Part shown: piece by piece, positions 2,879-12,634 of the stretch
How positions within the stretch are numbered: the stretch's first letter is position 1
Layout of the letters: each line of letters begins with the position of its first letter
Assembly: GCF_044324785.1 (NCBI RefSeq)
Contig: NZ_CP172127.1
Length of the DNA stretch: 64,000 bases
Direction: 5' to 3' (one strand)
Origin: Escherichia coli
GTDB lineage: Bacteria; Pseudomonadota; Gammaproteobacteria; Enterobacterales; Enterobacteriaceae
Notes under the pieces: model-generated
What the model saw: only the letters and a program-made list of their open reading frames with translations
Database searches by the model: none
Told to the model about the DNA's origin: nothing
Position numbers and translations under genes: made by a program

Positions 2879-4384
2879 ATGAGCACTAATTTTTTACACG
2901 GTATTCGCACGCTCGAATACGACGACGGCACAAAAGAGATTAGCACGGTAGATATTTCAGTTATCGGGATTGTTGGTACTGCACCGGATTCCGCGCAATC
3001 AACCAGTTCCGAGTTAATAACAGGGAGTGCTATTTTAAAAAACCGCCTGAAATTCACGGCGACGGGACAGGGGGTGAACGGCAATTCATGGAGCGTAGAG
3101 ATTCTCGAAACCGATCCGGACGGCTGCACGGCACTGTGGAGTGATATGCCCGACGGGAGTCGACGTTTATCAATATCAGTCGCACCGGCATCCGGCTCGC
3201 ACGGATACACCCCAGCAGAAATCGTGCAGGCAGTCACAATAGCAAACCCGCCTCCGGACCAATTATTTTTAACAATTACGGCAGTAGATGTCGAGGAGGA
3301 CGCGGGAAATGTGACTGCCTCACCGTTGCAATATTTAAGCGGCGGCAGTGATGAGGCGTTCCCAATTAATACCCCCGTACTTGTTGCCGGGAGTCCAAAA
3401 AAATCCGCTTTACTGGGTGAGCGCGGCACGTTGCCGAAAGATATTGCCGATATTTTCAATCAGGACAACGCCTTGCTTGTTGTTGTACGAGTAAAAGATG
3501 ACAAAGACACAACAAAACAACAGCAAAATATTATCGACGGTGTCAAGCAGCTGGAAAAATCGAAACAGTTAACCGAAGTCACACCGCGTATTATTATTGC
3601 ACCAGATTTTAGCGCAATTGATGCGATAGCCGCTCAGCTTGAGGTGGCCGCAAATAAACTCCGGGGGGTGTGTTATATAGACTCTCCGCGCGCTGCTACC
3701 CCTGCAGACGTTGTGAATCGCCGGCAAAAACTCGGCGGACGTGCTGAGTTGTTGCGTCCCCGTGTTTATTCAACTAGCGACGTCGGGGGGCAATCAAGAC
3801 CGTATTCTGCCATCGCTGCTGGTTTACGAGCCAGAATTGATAATGAAAAAGGGTTTTGGTGGAGTAAGTCGAATCAAAATATTTATGGAATAACAGGGCT
3901 TGAGCAGGTTGATGATTTCATTATTGGCGAGACAAACTGCACAGCGAACCTGCTGAACGCTAGTCAGGTCAGCACCATCATTCGCTATGACGGATTCCGA
4001 CATTGGGGTAACTATCTGTGCAGCCTGGATCCGCAATGGTCGTTTGAATGCGTTCGTCGAACAGCTGACGTAATTGAGGATTCTATAGCCCGGGCAATGA
4101 TGACCGATTTTATTGATCGCCCGATAGACCTGCATCTCGGAACAGACGTTGTCGAGTCGATAAACGCGTATCTGCATAAATTAGAGGAGCAGGGTGCGAT
4201 TAACGGAGGGCGTGCGTGGTTAGACGGTGAGCTGAATACAAAAGAAAGTCTGGCCGCTGGCAATCTTTATATTAATGTTGATTTTGGTCCGAAATCTCCG
4301 GCACAAACAATTACGTTAATGTACCGCATTAATAATGACTATACAGTTGAAGCACTAGCCTCACTTTTTAAAGAAACAGCCTGA
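2879..4384 (+). CDS. Contractile tail sheath protein (gpFI-like)
   Basis: 501 aa; the N-terminal region (HGIRTLEYDDGTKEISTV...IGIVGTA) and later ...RYDGFRHWGN... resemble the P2 FI sheath family. Confidence 0.85.
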   Translation: MSTNFLHGIRTLEYDDGTKEISTVDISVIGIVGTAPDSAQSTSSELITGSAILKNRLKFTATGQGVNGNSWSVEILETDPDGCTALWSDMPDGSRRLSISVAPASGSHGYTPAEIVQAVTIANPPPDQLFLTITAVDVEEDAGNVTASPLQYLSGGSDEAFPINTPVLVAGSPKKSALLGERGTLPKDIADIFNQDNALLVVVRVKDDKDTTKQQQNIIDGVKQLEKSKQLTEVTPRIIIAPDFSAIDAIAAQLEVAANKLRGVCYIDSPRAATPADVVNRRQKLGGRAELLRPRVYSTSDVGGQSRPYSAIAAGLRARIDNEKGFWWSKSNQNIYGITGLEQVDDFIIGETNCTANLLNASQVSTIIRYDGFRHWGNYLCSLDPQWSFECVRRTADVIEDSIARAMMTDFIDRPIDLHLGTDVVESINAYLHKLEEQGAINGGRAWLDGELNTKESLAAGNLYINVDFGPKSPAQTITLMYRINNDYTVEALASLFKETA

Positions 4385-4401: not shown

Positions 4402-4914
4402 ATGTCAGACAGCAACGCTTACCGCGCGTTTGCGCTATTCGTGCAGGGCGAACGGGTTTTAAATTGTACTGAATATACTCCTGTCGATATGAAAATAATC
4501 GAGGACGAGTTTAAAACAGGCGCGATGGATACAGCTATCACATTAGATGGCGGTATGGAGAAAATGTCAGCCAGTTTTAAAGTTTCGGGTTCTGATTCTG
4601 GTGTTATGAGCTATTTCGGGTTAATACCGGGAGTCAAGACGCGGTTTGAAATTCGTAGTGCGTACACAGACTCCTATGGAATAAATTTTGAGCGTATTGA
4701 TACCTACGAGGGACTTATTACGGCAATCACTGATGACGCTCAGGGGACTGATTCAAAATCGTCAGTGGGGCAATCAGTAACGATTGCGCCGAGCTATTAT
4801 AAACGAGTTCAAAATGGACGAATTATTTACGAAATTCATCCTGCAAAAATGAAACGCGTTATCAACGGTGTTGATGTTCTTGCGGGCGTCGCTCGAATCC
4901 TTCATGTATATTAA
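4402..4914 (+). CDS. Tail tube protein (gpFII-like)
   Basis: 170 aa immediately after the sheath gene; size and position match FII. Confidence 0.8.
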   Translation: MSDSNAYRAFALFVQGERVLNCTEYTPVDMKIIEDEFKTGAMDTAITLDGGMEKMSASFKVSGSDSGVMSYFGLIPGVKTRFEIRSAYTDSYGINFERIDTYEGLITAITDDAQGTDSKSSVGQSVTIAPSYYKRVQNGRIIYEIHPAKMKRVINGVDVLAGVARILHVY

Positions 4915-4926
4915 AAGGTAAGTAAA

Positions 4927-5208
4927 ATGGAATCCTTATTAGACAGTATGACTATTACGCTCTCTCGACCGTTTATTATTAAGGGCGAGAGCTGCGATAC
5001 AATTACTATTCGCGAACCCAAATTACGCGACCGCATTATGTTCAGTAACGATAAAAGCAGTCTTGAAGAGCGGACAGCGACAATGCTGGCGCGCCTGGCA
5101 AATCTGGAAAGAGAGGATTTATATGCGCTCCCCGCGTGCGATTACGATCAACTGGAGGCCGCGTTTAACGAACTGGTAAAGCACCCGAAAGACCGACATC
5201 AGATATAG
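4927..5208 (+). CDS. Tail assembly chaperone (gpE-like); possible -1 frameshift extension E' to 5288
   Basis: 93-aa ORF between tube and tape measure. The -1 frame is open from 5169 to a TAA at 5286-5288. Confidence 0.55.
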   Translation: MESLLDSMTITLSRPFIIKGESCDTITIREPKLRDRIMFSNDKSSLEERTATMLARLANLEREDLYALPACDYDQLEAAFNELVKHPKDRHQI

Positions 5209-5316
5209 TTATTCTGATTCCGTTTATTGCGAAAAAACTTGCCATCCCGCCTGATACGCAAATGGACCTGCCGTATCGGGTTTTTAATTTCTATGTAGAC
5301 GAGGTCATGAAAACCG

Positions 5317-6957
5317 ATGGCTATTTCTCAAAACTTTAAAACGCAGGTTGTATTCGGGGGGCGAATAGACCCGTCGTTTCGGCGCGGTACAACAGAACTC
5401 AACGACGCCATTCGGCAGACGTCGTCTACTGTCGGAAAATTAACGAAAAGCCAGGATAAATTAAAAGACAAAATCGCAGCAATGAAACTGGCAGGTAAAG
5501 ATGTCTCTGATTTATCTGCTCAATATCAAAAGCTGGACCGTCGGATAAAGGCGACAACGCAGGACCAGGAGGCGCTGAATACCCAGCTTGCTAAAAAACA
5601 GCGGCTGGAGAAGTGGACGGGGCGCGCAAAAGGTGCTGCAAAATGGGGCGGACGAGCCGCCGCAGGTGCGGTGAGGGCCACGGGACGGGGTATCAAATGG
5701 GGGACGCTGGGGGCCGTGGGTCTGCTCGGCGGCGCGGCTGCTGGCGCGCTGGCAATGAATGCAGAGACGTCAGAAAAACTCGGTCTGGCGAAGTCCTACG
5801 GTGTTGGCATCGAAAAATACGCTGCGTGGGAAAATATTGGTAAAGCTGCGGGCCTGAACGGCGAAAATGTTGGTGACCTGTCAGAAGAACTTACAAATAA
5901 AATCGGCGAAATCGGAAACGAAAAAAACCTGAACCCCATGTTGTTTCAAATTGGCTTGACAAAAAAACGGATGGCTAAATGGGATCGAGAAAAACAGTTC
6001 AATGAAGTTATGCGGCGTATCTCTGAAATGAAGGATGATCAACAGGCGGCGAGTCTGGCTGATCAGCTAATGGGGGGAGAGGCTAATAAAATAATGACCT
6101 ATATGCGGGCGACTGGTAAAAGCTGGGAGCAGACTATGTCGGACGCTCAAAAATCAAACCTGCTAACGAAAGAAGGGGCTGAGGGTGCAGCGCGCGCGCA
6201 CGTATCCGTCACGAATCTGTGGGGGGCAATCACATCGGGGCTGGCAGATACTCTCGGCAAAATCGGAGGGGAACTCGCGCCGACGTTTGACGCTATGCGA
6301 GACGGGCTGGCATCCTGGTTTAAAGAGAATCAAGGGGGGGTTGTTGATAGTATTAAAGAATGGGTTAAGCCAGAAAATATGAAAAAACTTTGGGAGGGGA
6401 TAGTCAGTTTTGGCGAGGCGTGCGTTAAATTCGGAAAAATAATTTGGGCAGTCGTAAAAAAACTGGAGTGGTTAATCCCGGACGAGAAAACAGACGAGGA
6501 ACAGCGCGTATATAACGAAGAATATAATAAAGCGTATCAGGAATTCATGGATAGTGGTGGTAAATATTCACCGAACCCAGGACTGGCAGCAGATAATGTA
6601 GCAAAAGCAAAAGCCGACGAAGCCGTGGATAATATGCGACACCCTGAACGTCTTGCTCGTGCAAAATCACAGGCTGAATCAATGCTCTCGTTTGCTAACC
6701 CGTTTACTGGATTAATAAATAAAGACTCAACGCCTGAATCACAAAACTCAGCAACGTTGAATATTGACGCGCTGAGACAGGCAGTCGCAACTCCAGCGCC
6801 AGAGCAAAACAATAAAATTGAAATCAATATTATCGGAGCAGCAGATCCACAATCAACACAGCAGGCTGCCGCATCGGGTGTGCTCGACGGGCTGAGACAG
6901 GTTGCGAGTTCGTACAATCGTGGTGCAATGTTTGATAAACCAGCGGCGGCGGGGTGA
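5317..6957 (+). CDS. Tail tape measure protein (gpT-like)
   Basis: 546 aa, with an N-terminal coiled-coil-like region and a Gly/Ala-rich stretch (GRAAAGAVRATGRG...GLLGGAAAGALA); position after E. Confidence 0.8.
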   Translation: MAISQNFKTQVVFGGRIDPSFRRGTTELNDAIRQTSSTVGKLTKSQDKLKDKIAAMKLAGKDVSDLSAQYQKLDRRIKATTQDQEALNTQLAKKQRLEKWTGRAKGAAKWGGRAAAGAVRATGRGIKWGTLGAVGLLGGAAAGALAMNAETSEKLGLAKSYGVGIEKYAAWENIGKAAGLNGENVGDLSEELTNKIGEIGNEKNLNPMLFQIGLTKKRMAKWDREKQFNEVMRRISEMKDDQQAASLADQLMGGEANKIMTYMRATGKSWEQTMSDAQKSNLLTKEGAEGAARAHVSVTNLWGAITSGLADTLGKIGGELAPTFDAMRDGLASWFKENQGGVVDSIKEWVKPENMKKLWEGIVSFGEACVKFGKIIWAVVKKLEWLIPDEKTDEEQRVYNEEYNKAYQEFMDSGGKYSPNPGLAADNVAKAKADEAVDNMRHPERLARAKSQAESMLSFANPFTGLINKDSTPESQNSATLNIDALRQAVATPAPEQNNKIEINIIGAADPQSTQQAAASGVLDGLRQVASSYNRGAMFDKPAAAG

Positions 6958-7382
6958 CAATGAGTGATGCAATAAACGGTGCTGAGGATATCATGCTCGG
7001 TTTGGGTGATTTCATTTTTGCTATATCAACAGTAGCGTACAACAAACTGCAACGTAGTGACGCCTGGCGCTGGGCTCAGCAAACACGATTCGGGAAAAAC
7101 GACGCATTGCAGATAACCGGACGACCGAACCCCACAATCACGATCGATGGGAAAATAAACGCGTTATTCCTTGATGGGTGCGGCATTGGCTTGTTAACAG
7201 ATTTGCGGGCACTGGGGAACTCGGGAGAACCCCAGCAACTGGTGCTGGGGACCGGGGAGGTGAAGGGGTACTGGGTTATCAGGGAGTTAACAGAAACGCA
7301 AAACAGTTTTCTGAAAGGAGGGACCCCAAAATCGCAGGACTTTTCACTCACGCTCGAATATTATGGAGCTTCGCTAGATTAA
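6954..7382 (+). CDS. Tail protein gpU-like
   Basis: 142 aa, overlaps the tape-measure stop (ATGA); position. Confidence 0.6.
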   Translation: MTMSDAINGAEDIMLGLGDFIFAISTVAYNKLQRSDAWRWAQQTRFGKNDALQITGRPNPTITIDGKINALFLDGCGIGLLTDLRALGNSGEPQQLVLGTGEVKGYWVIRELTETQNSFLKGGTPKSQDFSLTLEYYGASLD

Positions 7383-7544
7383 TACAAAATCAAGCGCTAC
7401 CAGAGCACTTAACAAGTATAAAAATAATAAAAAAAACTACGAGCATAAATGTAAAACAACCTGATGGTATTTTTTTTTGACGCCGAAATACTAATACCTC
7501 TCCGACTACTAAAATTAATTCTCATTATGAAATCCTTTTAATTA

Positions 7545-7769
7545 ATGGGGCCCCAAATGATTACATACACTACACGGGACGGTGACCGTCTCGATCAGAT
7601 CTGCCTTGCTGTCTACGGGAGAACAGCAAAAACGACAGAAACCGTGTTATATCAGGTTTTAAATTACGGCGTAACGGATATGTGTGCCGTGTTTCGTGCA
7701 GGAGAAAAAATTGTTTTACCAGAAATCGACCCCGAACCGGCTAAAAAAGAAACGCAATTATGGGATTGA
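7545..7769 (+). CDS. Tail protein X-like (LysM-like); a start at 7557 (MITYT...) is also possible
   Basis: Sequence ...DRLDQICLAVYGRT...ETVLYQVLNYGV...AGEKIVLPEI... resembles P2 gpX as I remember it. Confidence 0.65.
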   Translation: MGPQMITYTTRDGDRLDQICLAVYGRTAKTTETVLYQVLNYGVTDMCAVFRAGEKIVLPEIDPEPAKKETQLWD

Positions 7770-7772
7770 TGA

Positions 7773-8816
7773 ATGAGTGATTACGTAAATACTGGCGTGG
7801 AAGCATGGAAGCCCAATTTTTATATATCTGCTGATAATGAAAACATCACGGATAAAATAAGAAAAGGTTTGATCAATATCACGCTCACAGATTATGGTGG
7901 TTCGAGTAAACAGACAGACGAATTACGCGTAGCAATCGTTTCTGAAACTCTGAAAATTCCGGCCCGCGGAGTAAAAATCAGTATTGGGCTCGGTTTCGGT
8001 AATCAGATAATTGATAAGGGTGTATACATCGTTGATGGTGCGAGCAGTGGCGGTGAACCCCGGGTAGTTGATTTCACAGCAAAAGCAGCTCCGATGAACG
8101 CATCAAAAGGCTCTCCGACAGTTCAGAGCAAAAAAACTCGCTCCTGGAGCGACGTCACTGTCAGCAATATCGTTGCAACAATAGCGAGCGATAACGGGCT
8201 AAAACCTCGCGTATCAAAGCGGTTTGCAGACAACATTATCACGCAGCTCGATCAAGTCGGCGAGTCAGATATGCACCTGATGTCGCGGCTCGCAACGAGA
8301 TTCGATGCGGTGAGTAAACCCGCGGGCGGGTACTGGATATTCCTGCCGCGCGGCGCGGGCGAATCTGTTAGCGGAGCACCGCTTCAGCACTACACGCTCA
8401 CGCGTCGTGATAACTCAAGCTGGGGTTATTCGAGAAATGGACAAAACGGTGATAGTGGCGGAGGTGGCGAAAATGCGGAGCCAACGTATTTGATCAAATA
8501 TCACGATACAGCAACGGGGCAGATCAAAGAATTGCGTACGGGCAGTGGCGGCGATCCTGTAATCGAGTGGCCGGCAGTGGAGCCGTCGCTTGATGCAGCG
8601 AAAGAAGCTGCGCCAGGACTCAAGGGCGGTGCAGCTAAAAAAGAGTTCTCCATGACTTACACGACGCCCGCGACGCTCGATTTAGTATCGCTGACTGCAG
8701 AATGCAAAGTCACAACACAAGGATTCGGGACAGAGGAGGACCGAGACTGGACAATCAATACGTTGACGCTGACGCTGGCTGAAAACGGATTCTCTGCGCG
8801 ACTGTCGCTGGAGTAA
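7773..8816 (+). CDS. Tail protein D-like
   Basis: 347 aa immediately after the X-like gene, as in R-type pyocin/phiCTX-like clusters. Confidence 0.65.
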   Translation: MSDYVNTGVEAWKPNFYISADNENITDKIRKGLINITLTDYGGSSKQTDELRVAIVSETLKIPARGVKISIGLGFGNQIIDKGVYIVDGASSGGEPRVVDFTAKAAPMNASKGSPTVQSKKTRSWSDVTVSNIVATIASDNGLKPRVSKRFADNIITQLDQVGESDMHLMSRLATRFDAVSKPAGGYWIFLPRGAGESVSGAPLQHYTLTRRDNSSWGYSRNGQNGDSGGGGENAEPTYLIKYHDTATGQIKELRTGSGGDPVIEWPAVEPSLDAAKEAAPGLKGGAAKKEFSMTYTTPATLDLVSLTAECKVTTQGFGTEEDRDWTINTLTLTLAENGFSARLSLE

Positions 8817-8821
8817 ATGAA

Positions 8822-10648
8822 ATGGCAATAATATCGGGTGTATACGCAAATGGGGTCGGCGAGCCCGTTGTCGGCGTTCAGTTAGTATTAACAGCACGGG
8901 TCACGAGTTCACGCGTAGTAATGACCACTGTTGTAGAGCAAGAAACAGGCGCGGCGGGTGAGTACAAATTTGATATGAAGCCCGGAGTTTACGTTGTCAC
9001 TGCTAGTGCGGCATATCTCGGCGTGATTAACGTTAACCCGGACAGTGTTGACGGCACGTTAAACGACTATTTGACTAATTTTAGCGCAGACGAACTGACG
9101 CCAGCTGCGTTGGCGGAGATCCAGGAACTCGTTGCCACAGCACAAGCCGCTGCCAGTGTTGCCAGCGCCGCCGCAACGGAGGCCAGGCAGAATGCCGCCG
9201 CCGCCGCTGCTGCTGCGCAGATTTCGACGGCAGCGGCAGGGAGCGCCAGATTTGAGAATTTTGACGAAATTATCAATGTCAATACAACAGCAATGCTGGA
9301 GCTGGAAAAACCGGAGGTGTTAGATCCGGATATTGCAATAACTATCACAGAGACGATTAATTATAACTATATTGGCCCGGTAAACGGATTTTGCGACGTT
9401 ACTAGCCCGCTTGAATATAAAATTCAAATGTACGCCTACACAACAGGCGAATATTTTAACGGCGAAACAAATTTAACAGCGGACGGGAAGTTTTCTTTTA
9501 AACGTTCCTGGGCTGGTGCAAAACAATTCAGATTGGTGCGCGTAGCAGATAGTAAATGGATCACTACGCTGGAATACCCGCTGTGTATTCGCAGTTACTG
9601 GATGCCCGCTGACGCCGATCCCGAGGTAGTCAGCGTCATGAAAGACCGTTGCTACACATATGATCAGGCGTGCGCGGCGCTGGCTCTCATGGCGCAGAAT
9701 CACGAGGCGGTAGAGCGTTATGTTACGGGTCTGTGCGCCCTGGTGGGTGAAAACGGCGGCATTAAATTTTTTGTTAACCGGCTGTCCGCACAGTCCTCCC
9801 GCGAATATTACCGCACGGGTAACGCGGCGTGGGTGTTGTACGCCCTGGCATTCTATCTGAGCAAATACCCTACCGGCAGTAACGCTGAGTTAGCGCGCGC
9901 GAAATTAAACGCCGGGCTAACCTGGCTGGACGGTCTGAAGGTTGACGCCAGCGGCGACCCGCGCCACGGCTTATACATGGGCGGCAACGGTAAATATCTG
10001 GAGGACGGATCATTTGATCCGAATTATGTTGCGACCTGGTGCGCGCTCGAGCACAACGTTGATATTTATTTTTTATTCGAACTCGTTGGACGGTTAACCG
10101 ATTTTACCGGATACGAACTGCGAGCCACCACGCTGGCTGCAAATATCGTGGAAAAATTCTGGATTGAGAGCGAGGGGCGATTCCGGCAGGGCGTGCACAT
10201 TGACGGCCCGGACAACGCCGCAGCGCTGGATCAATCGAGTTGGGGCGGGATATTCGCAGTAAAAGCCGCGCCGGAGTTGGCGGAAAAATGCCGCCGTTAT
10301 ATGGAAAGATTCCGGTTCGGCACACTGGAGAGCACCGGTTATACACCGTATCACCCGGACTACGGATACAGCGGCCATAGCCGTGGCGTGTGGACCGAGG
10401 GTACAGCGGGTGTAGCACTATTCGAACGTGCGCTAGGGAACGAGCAGAGAGCTACCGATCTGATCGCGGGATTAAAACCACTGCGTAATGAATACGGCTA
10501 TCGCGACTCATGCGACGATAAAAAATACGACACACTGCCGGACTGGCCGTCGACTACAAACACCGCTTGGGTTATTTTAACATGCAAGCCGGCGGGGTTT
10601 TGGTGCGTAGATTTCCCGGTATTGGACGTTGGTATCGTCAGGTACTGA
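8822..10648 (+). CDS. Side-tail-fiber-like protein: lambda Stf-like N-terminal domain, Ala-rich linker, and an unassigned ~400-aa C-terminal domain
   Basis: N-terminus MAIISGVYANGVGEPVVGVQLVLTARV...GEYKFDMKPGVYVV...GTLNDYL parallels the lambda Stf N-terminus. An AAAAAAAAQISTAAAG stretch follows, then a Trp/Tyr-rich globular region with no transmembrane or signal sequence. Confidence 0.6.
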   Translation: MAIISGVYANGVGEPVVGVQLVLTARVTSSRVVMTTVVEQETGAAGEYKFDMKPGVYVVTASAAYLGVINVNPDSVDGTLNDYLTNFSADELTPAALAEIQELVATAQAAASVASAAATEARQNAAAAAAAAQISTAAAGSARFENFDEIINVNTTAMLELEKPEVLDPDIAITITETINYNYIGPVNGFCDVTSPLEYKIQMYAYTTGEYFNGETNLTADGKFSFKRSWAGAKQFRLVRVADSKWITTLEYPLCIRSYWMPADADPEVVSVMKDRCYTYDQACAALALMAQNHEAVERYVTGLCALVGENGGIKFFVNRLSAQSSREYYRTGNAAWVLYALAFYLSKYPTGSNAELARAKLNAGLTWLDGLKVDASGDPRHGLYMGGNGKYLEDGSFDPNYVATWCALEHNVDIYFLFELVGRLTDFTGYELRATTLAANIVEKFWIESEGRFRQGVHIDGPDNAAALDQSSWGGIFAVKAAPELAEKCRRYMERFRFGTLESTGYTPYHPDYGYSGHSRGVWTEGTAGVALFERALGNEQRATDLIAGLKPLRNEYGYRDSCDDKKYDTLPDWPSTTNTAWVILTCKPAGFWCVDFPVLDVGIVRY

Positions 10649-11983: not shown

Positions 11984-12634
11984 TCAATGAGACATCATCT
12001 CCTCGACCACTTCTTCGCTACTCAACTGATAGGGATAATACGTTGGCCAGTTTTCCATTTCATTTAATAAAGATTGCTGTGAATCATTACCCATAAAAAT
12101 GTGAAAATGAGATGATTTTCGTGGTGCAATTATATGATCGCTAAATTGAATATATTTAGGGGCTTTGCTTTCAGGATCTTTACATTCGAATAAGTAACGA
12201 ACGCCTTTCTTGCCTGATTTATAGGTGAGTATTTTGTATCCATCATAATCATATTTACAGGATGTTGTTTCATTATTTCTATGGAATTCAACAATGCCGT
12301 CCTCAATGCCAATCATCTCGATATCTGTCACATAACCTTTGCGATAATAATCTTTAATTTCAGCAAATGTTTTAGTTTTATCTGCATCCGCTTTCTTCTG
12401 AAAGACGGGGTCAAGTTTGCCACTTTGCAGTAAAGGATAAACGGATTGCCAGACTCCATCCCAGTCACTGAGCGTTCGGTTTTGTACATTGGCATCATCA
12501 AAAACACCATTAGCAGCTTTTTGTTCGACCTCTGTTAAGGGTTTGCCGTGTGAGTGATGACCATGCGAAAAGGCAGGAGCGCTAACAATAAAGACACCTA
12601 AAGCAACAGCCAGTTTATGAAGACGAATCGCCAA
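11984..12634 (-). CDS. zinT: Zinc/cadmium-binding periplasmic protein ZinT (YodA)
   Basis: 216 aa with signal peptide and His-rich HGHHSHG motif; recognised as E. coli ZinT. Confidence 0.9.

Follow-up and report, generated by a model that had tools for sequence, protein, structure and literature searches.

The E gene of a P2-like tail module in Escherichia coli, which encodes the putative tail assembly chaperone, is separated from the downstream tape-measure-like gene by a short gap. The question raised by this locus is whether the gap encodes the end of a second, longer chaperone, E+E', produced when ribosomes shift into the -1 frame shortly before the E stop codon, in analogy with E/E' of phage P2 and G/GT of phage lambda. 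The locus was analysed in a stretch of 64,000 nucleotides from contig NZ_CP172127.1, referred to here as the window, and all coordinates are those of the window unless another sequence is named.

Gene order of the tail module

The window opens within a P2-like tail module, for which the following features were located.

92-538: baseplate J fragment, P2-like tail module
541-1167: gpI, P2-like tail module
1160-2284: tail fibre, P2-like tail module
2288-2866: fibre assembly protein, P2-like tail module
2879-4384: sheath, P2-like tail module
4402-4914, plus strand: tail tube gene (P2 FII-like), directly 5' of E; PF04985 (Phage_tube), E = 8e-22
4927-5208, plus strand: E-like tail assembly chaperone, 93 aa; PF10109 (Phage_TAC_7); stop codon TAG at 5206-5208
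5209-5316: gap between E and the tape-measure-like gene, 108 nt
5317-6957, plus strand: tape-measure-like gene, 546 aa, ATG at 5317, in the place of P2 gene T; phrog_3654, E = 6e-249
6954-7382: gpU homologue, PF06995
7545-7769: X, P2-like tail module
7773-8816: D, P2-like tail module
8822-10648: second tail-fibre-like ORF, 608 aa, 3' of gene D; PF08400 N-terminal domain
11984-12634, minus strand: zinT, a host gene

The order of sheath, tube, E, gap, tape measure, U, X and D is that of P2. The tape-measure-like gene sits between E and the gpU homologue (PF06995). The family matched by its 546-aa product, phrog_3654, carries the label 'unknown function', and no Pfam tape-measure domain was found in this protein, which gave weak coiled-coil-type matches only. 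In the GenBank record vB_EcoM-783R5, the gene at the tape-measure position is broken into two hypothetical ORFs.

The host gene zinT lies approximately 1.3 kb past the second fibre-like ORF. Because this ORF is followed so closely by a host gene, the right end of the element was placed at about 11.1-12.0 kb. Related IMG/VR contigs are 41-46 kb long; the element may be a complete prophage, a tail-only remnant or a tailocin, and the locus may be part of a defective prophage. The locus is present in 454 of 5,426 complete E. coli genomes (about 8%); E24377A and SE11 are two strains with the element. For the first 14,000 nt of the window, the best coverage by any complete E. coli genome in the collection was 76%, at about 95% identity. 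A close relative at the E/E' locus (L014, 95% amino-acid identity) belongs to Escherichia whittamii. This part of the window may come from an unusual Escherichia lineage, or the element in it may be a mosaic.

Between U and X, relatives have a small superinfection immunity gene in antisense orientation (PF14373; L001 8962-9162, L003 5413-5655). The corresponding spacer of the window (7382-7545) contained no minus-strand ORF of 40 aa or more and, by comparison of coordinates, is about 75 nt shorter than that of L001. The PF14373 gene appears to have been lost or truncated here.

E and the open -1 frame

The E protein matched PF10109 with 59.8 bits (cut-off 25) over residues 9-84, which makes it a member of the Phage_TAC_7 family (tail assembly chaperones E / gp41 / gp14), and it is annotated as 'phage tail assembly protein' in RefSeq relatives. 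On its own it measures 93 aa and 10.8 kDa. The family match stops at residue 84, which is the proposed shift site.

The -1 frame, consisting of the codons that start at positions divisible by 3, has its upstream limit directly in front of 5169.

5166-5168, plus strand: -1-frame TAA that limits the shift window on its 5' side

From 5169 onwards the frame is open through the E stop codon, in agreement with the original prediction. Its end lies further downstream than predicted: the bases 5286-5288, where a TAA had been placed, read AAT in this frame, a TAA at 5285-5287 belongs to the +1 frame, and the true end is a TAA at 5337-5339. The frame thus holds 56 open codons, of which about 43 lie past the E stop, instead of the 27 or so added residues that had been estimated. 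The -1 ORF fills the entire gap and overlaps the start of the tape-measure gene (ATG 5317) by 23 nt. Two overlapping ORFs, E and the -1 ORF of 5169-5339, are therefore found between the tube and tape-measure genes, which is the arrangement of a chaperone pair.

Upon mononucleotide shuffling of 5169-5336, 2.8% of the shuffles were without stops, and for 28% of the long ORFs in the window the -1 frame stays open for 43 codons or more past the stop. An open -1 frame by itself is weak evidence; its conservation and the purifying selection on it in diverged relatives exceed chance.

Conservation of E' as coding sequence

Relatives were gathered by protein search, contig look-up and scans of IMG/VR. 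A scan of genome contigs used over-specific patterns and returned one locus, from Escherichia whittamii. The samples comprised 27 loci of the clade, seven lineages for the dN/dS calculations and 15 distinct sequences in an alignment designated A3. The E proteins of the seven lineages are 54-72% identical to that of the window.

Conservation of the extended frame in homologous elements, on which the original prediction had been made to depend, was observed throughout. The -1 frame is open in all 27 clade loci, it opens 1-4 codons 5' of an invariant GGTAAAG, and the length from this heptamer to the stop is always 52 codons. Across the clade E' ends in a TAA overlapping the tape-measure start, and the stop of E itself is found at three different positions as a result of substitutions.

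Selection was assessed in the part of E' that lies outside E (5220-5316). For the -1 frame the pooled pairwise dN/dS over the seven lineages was 0.17; the E frame gave 1.22 and the +1 frame 2.03. In the same interval the -1 frame contains no stops in any lineage, and one to five (E frame) and one to three (+1 frame) stops per lineage are present in the other two. Variable columns were distributed over the first, second and third codon positions of the -1 frame as 14/10/27 (chi-square p = 0.0096). With amino-acid identities of 56-67% for E' and 54-72% for E, E' is as conserved as E.

The relatives share no ATG, GTG or TTG in the -1 frame, and no start codon was found ahead of the conserved N-terminal half of E' (DIxxLxPFxxKxLxIPP). 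The second ORF is thus startless yet conserved as coding sequence, as in known chaperone pairs. Among 1.84 billion representative proteins, an E' profile matched just eight. Of these, six were retrieved, and all are either short fragments starting at an internal ATG or products of an indel or an alternative frame; two more, of 1,741 and 832 aa, complete the list. Given the conserved frame, the lack of a conserved start and the small number of database proteins, E' is a coding sequence beyond the reach of normal initiation.

Annotation and family of E'

The inspected RefSeq (PGAP) and GenBank records of relatives treat the gap at 5209-5316, and its equivalent in L001-L033, as intergenic. In E. 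coli E24377A, where the locus adjoins yodB and zinT, RefSeq annotates E only. An E' gene was not named in the feature lists shown for other E. coli matches, and the gap is without a gene in the one GenBank phage record of the vB_EcoM-...R type that was opened. The E' coding region is systematically overlooked by gene callers.

E' gave no match to any Pfam, PHROG or NCBIfam model. It is not a member of PF06528 (Phage_P2_GpE), against which nothing was obtained even at E <= 10. An hhalign comparison of the clade alignment with P2 gpE+E' was non-significant (probability 0.3%) and did not establish direct homology between E' and PF06528. As the annotated E' of Burkholderia phage Mica is also without PF06528, E' domains are simply diverse. 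A marginal PDB match (9okl_A, E = 0.013) was set aside, and an AlphaFold2 model of the fusion, built from a 10-sequence alignment, was too poor to use (mean pLDDT 53, below 50 over E').

Frameshifting in tail assembly chaperone genes is conserved, textbook phage biology, and for this reason the existence of a frameshift at this locus is to be expected. The E/E' pair is an unannotated case of a well-known class, with an uncatalogued E' sequence family and a mildly unusual shift site.

A CRISPR spacer of 32 nt in E. coli strain SZQ1 (L071 602-633) is 100% identical to window positions 5265-5296, which encode the most conserved part of E' (LPYRVFNFYV). A PAM-like ATG lies beside the target at 5262-5264. 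The array, of type I-E with the repeat GTGTTCCCCGCGCCAGCGGGGATAAACCG, adjoins cas2e. The element is therefore targeted by a CRISPR spacer in at least one E. coli strain.

The proposed slippery site G_GTA_AAG

No canonical X_XXY_YYZ heptamer, the site expected in this family, was seen in the E frame of 5169-5208 when the sequence was read by eye, as had been stated in the original prediction. Such a heptamer is typical of the chaperone pairs but not obligatory, and the relatives of Hafnia phage yong2 are likewise without one. In 103 SEA-PHAGES genomes the annotated shift site has no recognised slippery motif within 10 bp, and in 22 of these the whole overlap is without one (PMC10885494). The following site is proposed instead.

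5175-5181, plus strand: proposed slippery heptamer G_GTA_AAG, E-frame codons ctG GTA AAG, Val84-Lys85

None of the 15 distinct sequences in alignment A3 deviates from this heptamer. Three consecutive third positions of the E frame are fixed in this way, while the synonymous sites of the A-F-N-E codons just 5' of the heptamer vary. Across the lineages, the region in which a shift is allowed spans about 11 codons, from the -1-frame stop upstream of GGT AAA to the earliest E stop; in other lineages the -1 frame opens just one codon ahead of GGT AAA. In this shift window, G_GTA_AAG is the sole shift-prone motif that is invariant in all lineages.

With GTA AAG in the E frame at 5176-5181 and the -1 frame open from 5169, the site conforms to the A_AAG/NNA_AAG type. 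The tetramer A_AA.G is by far the most shift-prone in E. coli: combined with a pseudoknot it gives up to 5.6% shifting, and without one about 0.15%, which is near background, so that a stimulator is needed to attain a few per cent in reporter assays (PMC4066793). Hexanucleotide sites of the form NNA_AAG are in natural use, for example in IS1222 (G_CGA_AAG), and in gene 10 of T7 the X_XX part is G_GU (PMC5009743). The heptamer of the window joins the best bacterial A-site tetramer (A_AAG) to the G_GU P-site context of T7 gene 10. Against it stands the mid-position mismatch that tRNA-Val has upon re-pairing on GGU.

On both strands of the whole window GGTAAAG occurs 18 times, compared with about six expected from dinucleotide shuffles (0 of 100 shuffles reached 18), an excess which presumably reflects codon and dipeptide usage (Gly-Lys, Val-Lys). 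With 18 copies present, the occurrence of the heptamer does not by itself identify a shift site. In the literature, a text search for the heptamer found miRNA and siRNA papers only, all unrelated. On the combined evidence of conservation and position, the shift probably takes place at A_AAG (5178-5181).

Comparison with sister clades and known systems

Comparison with the E/E' junctions of related phages, as advised in the original prediction, revealed canonical heptamers at the equivalent place in sister clades. In distant PF10109 relatives the shift site lies just past the conserved AFN motif with which the domain ends, and in L048, L050 and L051 this motif is directly followed by GAT TTT TTG, which contains the P2 heptamer T_TTT_TTG. 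From these alignments, the predicted shift position is homologous across the clades.

The closest parallel in layout is P2 itself, with the operon FI-FII-E-E'-T-U-D and an annotated -1 shift. P2 gpE matched PF10109 with 47.8 bits over residues 7-85, and the match ends at the proven shift site of P2, as that of the window's E does at the proposed one. In both, the shift is -1 and E' occupies the space from E to T and extends into the start of T; the fusions are of comparable length (137 aa for the window, 142 aa for P2). The two differ in the heptamer, canonical T_TTT_TTG in P2 and G_GTA_AAG in the window, and in E', which in P2 belongs to PF06528 (76 bits) and in the window is without a match.

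Burkholderia phage Mica, Achromobacter phage Mano and Hafnia phage yong2 encode PF10109 relatives that are 30-44% identical, each accompanied by a -1 ORF at the equivalent position. In Mica and Mano these are annotated as 'tape measure chaperone frameshift products' at the canonical sites A_AAT_TTT and G_GGT_TTT, respectively. The site of the yong2 clade is GTT_TTT_A. E' of yong2 is recognisably homologous to that of the window (DMPFSTFKDFLFDEV compared with DLPYRVFNFYVDEV) and is annotated as a separate hypothetical protein (39-aa ORF).

In lambda, gpG and gpGT are likewise a chaperone and its rarer, -1-extended form, with the tail tube gene on one side and the tape-measure gene on the other. 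The lambda slippery site is G_GGA_AAG, which has the A_AAG A-site slip in common with the window's heptamer. Lambda is a siphovirus with no sequence similarity to this locus, and both of its tRNAs can re-pair. The lambda G:GT ratio of about 30:1 matters for assembly (PMC5009743).

Sites at which, as in the window, only the A-site tRNA-Lys can re-pair perfectly are G_CGA_AAG of IS1222 and A_CGA_AAG of Bacillus subtilis cdd, and in both the preceding codon ends in A, as it does here (PMC5009743, PMC4066793). Those sites lie in transposase or cellular genes, unlike the tail gene of the window. The shift in IS1222 relies on a defined downstream structure. Gene 10A/10B of T7 resembles the window in its P-site, a valine codon after G with re-pairing on GGU and a central mismatch (PMC5009743), and differs in its A-site codon, UUC instead of AAG, and in being a capsid gene.

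Candidate stimulators

Two candidate stimulatory elements flank the heptamer.

5154-5158, plus strand: internal Shine-Dalgarno-like GGAGG, 16 nt 5' of the heptamer
5190-5225, plus strand: predicted imperfect hairpin, 8 nt 3' of the heptamer, with the E stop codon in the loop

The hairpin had a centroid energy of -8.5 kcal/mol and a z-score of -1.15. Folding of single sequences gave a weak hairpin 5-9 nt after the heptamer in about five of the seven lineages, with z-scores from +0.4 to -1.8. RNAalifold on the 15 sequences returned trivial pairs only and no consensus hairpin. A hairpin in a common register was seen in most lineages; when it was specified by hand, 65% of the cells paired, with one change on both sides, which was no better than shuffles, and compensatory changes were absent. 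A conserved stimulatory hairpin was consequently unsupported, given the null RNAalifold result and the lack of covariation, and 5190-5225 is a possible weak stimulator. The search for a slippery site with downstream structure, as suggested with the original prediction, thus yielded a candidate site, invariant although non-canonical, and no convincing conserved structure.

The GGAGG is kept in 13 of the 15 distinct relatives in alignment A3 and replaced by GAAGAGG in the other two; it doubles as coding sequence (L-E-A). It is a possible upstream stimulator. In dnaX the stimulator is spaced at about 10 nt, which is shorter than the 16 nt here. An Rfam scan of 4800-5500 revealed no frameshift element and nothing else of relevance, and folding, alignment and Rfam together gave no convincing conserved stimulator. 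The few-per-cent G/GT shift of lambda is likewise not known to need a strong stimulator.

Alternative explanations

A genuine -1 shift could take place at another site in the 11-codon shift window, chiefly at C_CCG (5184-5187), in which case the junction would read ...VKHP-ERPTS... rather than ...VK-APERPTS.... In favour of this site, CCG is invariant (A3 columns 41-43), the window and most lineages have a C in front of it, and C_CCG shifted 1.8- to 3.6-fold over background in reporter assays (PMC4066793). The same assays found it far less shift-prone than A_AAG (PMC4066793), however, its A-site partner is unable to re-pair (AAA to GAA), and conservation of the tetramer breaks down in three lineages (L002/L021, L006/L007 and L026/L027), which have T or G in front of CCG; a shift outside the heptamer is therefore considered unlikely. 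Joining of E and E' in a subpopulation of the mRNA by slippage of RNA polymerase is the most improbable of the alternatives: both slippage mechanisms are known in phages and IS elements (PMC5009743), but the longest homopolymer in the shift window is A3 in most lineages, and the A6 run at 5231-5236 falls 3' of the E stop. Shifting into the +1 frame was rejected, as this frame is closed at 5177-5179 and again near 5250, and so was readthrough of the E stop codon, which is followed by further in-frame stops.

E' might also be made as a free-standing small protein, from a non-canonical start (ATA, ATT or CTG at about 5203-5216) or through reinitiation by ribosomes that have terminated at the E stop. 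Strong conservation of E' does set in near that stop, at D-I (5205 onward), gene callers at times call fragments from internal ATGs, and the yong2 region is annotated as an ORF of its own. Separate initiation would nevertheless have to make do without a conserved ATG, GTG or TTG, at positions that vary by lineage, and no Shine-Dalgarno-like sequence was seen by eye ahead of the D-I codons. From the heptamer on, the -1 frame is free of indels, while the length of the E tail changes. In the close relative L016, the overlap carries two substitutions, each silent in the -1 frame but amino-acid-changing in E, although L023 shows the opposite for one, and the homologous P2 and lambda systems require the tethered fusion (PMC5009743). 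This origin of E' is judged slightly less probable than a shift at another site. Less probable still is that the open frame is a coincidence or a decaying relic without a product and the gap a conserved non-coding spacer. Stop-free -1 extensions of this length are indeed common in the window, the prophage is possibly defective, and indel variants in both frames occur among assemblies (P0001-P0004). This reading is already contradicted by a dN/dS of 0.17 in exactly one frame together with third-position enrichment, by seven diverged lineages that are stop-free with an E' identity on a par with that of E, and by a codon periodicity that is not expected of non-coding conservation.

Proteins P0001-P0004 and P0026 reflect single-base indels near 5170-5195 in public assemblies of the locus. 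As a result, E runs on into E' (137 aa) or into the +1 frame (119 aa), and the probable cause is a sequencing or assembly error or a mutation that makes a pseudogene. The 137-aa E-E' proteins of P0001 and P0002, from Logan assemblies, were excluded as evidence of natural fusions, since sister entries P0003 and P0004 are fused to the +1 frame, which marks them as indels or assembly errors.

Proposed mechanism and product

With a probability of roughly 83%, a -1 ribosomal frameshift makes E+E' from this tail operon. The original prediction of such a shift, modelled on P2 E/E' and lambda G/GT, is borne out by the gene order, the PF10109 match and the conserved frame; the occurrence, exact site and efficiency of the shift and the functions of both proteins are predicted from these comparisons.

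One start codon would give rise to two chaperones. The majority of ribosomes would translate E and halt at the TAG of 5206-5208, and a minority would slip one base backward on G_GUA_AAG (5175-5181). At this site tRNA-Lys would re-pair from AAG to AAA, and tRNA-Val, imperfectly, from GUA to GGU. Slipped ribosomes would next read GCA at 5181, so that base 5181 is read twice, and would continue for 52 codons.

5181-5339, plus strand: E' segment in the -1 frame, 52 codons (5181-5336, APERPTSDIV...GYFSKL) and TAA at 5337-5339

The predicted fusion consists of E residues 1-85 followed by APERPTSDIVILIPFIAKKLAIPPDTQMDLPYRVFNFYVDEVMKTDGYFSKL, with a length of 137 aa and a mass of 15.7 kDa. The predicted tryptic peptide in the -1 frame from 5181 is APERPTSDIVILIPFIAK. 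If the proteins act as in lambda G/GT and P2 E/E', the N-terminal domain that E and E+E' have in common would bind the tape-measure protein and the E' domain would recruit the tube protein, and a fixed, low ratio of E+E' to E would in this manner be set in the mRNA.

It is a more tentative proposal, held at a little under even odds, that the clade obtains E+E' from a natural G_GUA_AAG at which only the A-site tRNA-Lys re-pairs and to which no conserved RNA stimulator contributes. If true, useful -1 frameshifting in enterobacteria would have looser sequence needs than the rule of X_XXY_YYZ plus structure, and recoded phage genes of this kind would be systematically missed by gene callers and by heptamer-based frameshift finders. 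As G_GUA_AAG is invariant here and T_TTT_TTG is found at the same spot in sister clades, these phages form a natural and easily testable series, which may show how much slippery-site quality a low-ratio frameshift needs.
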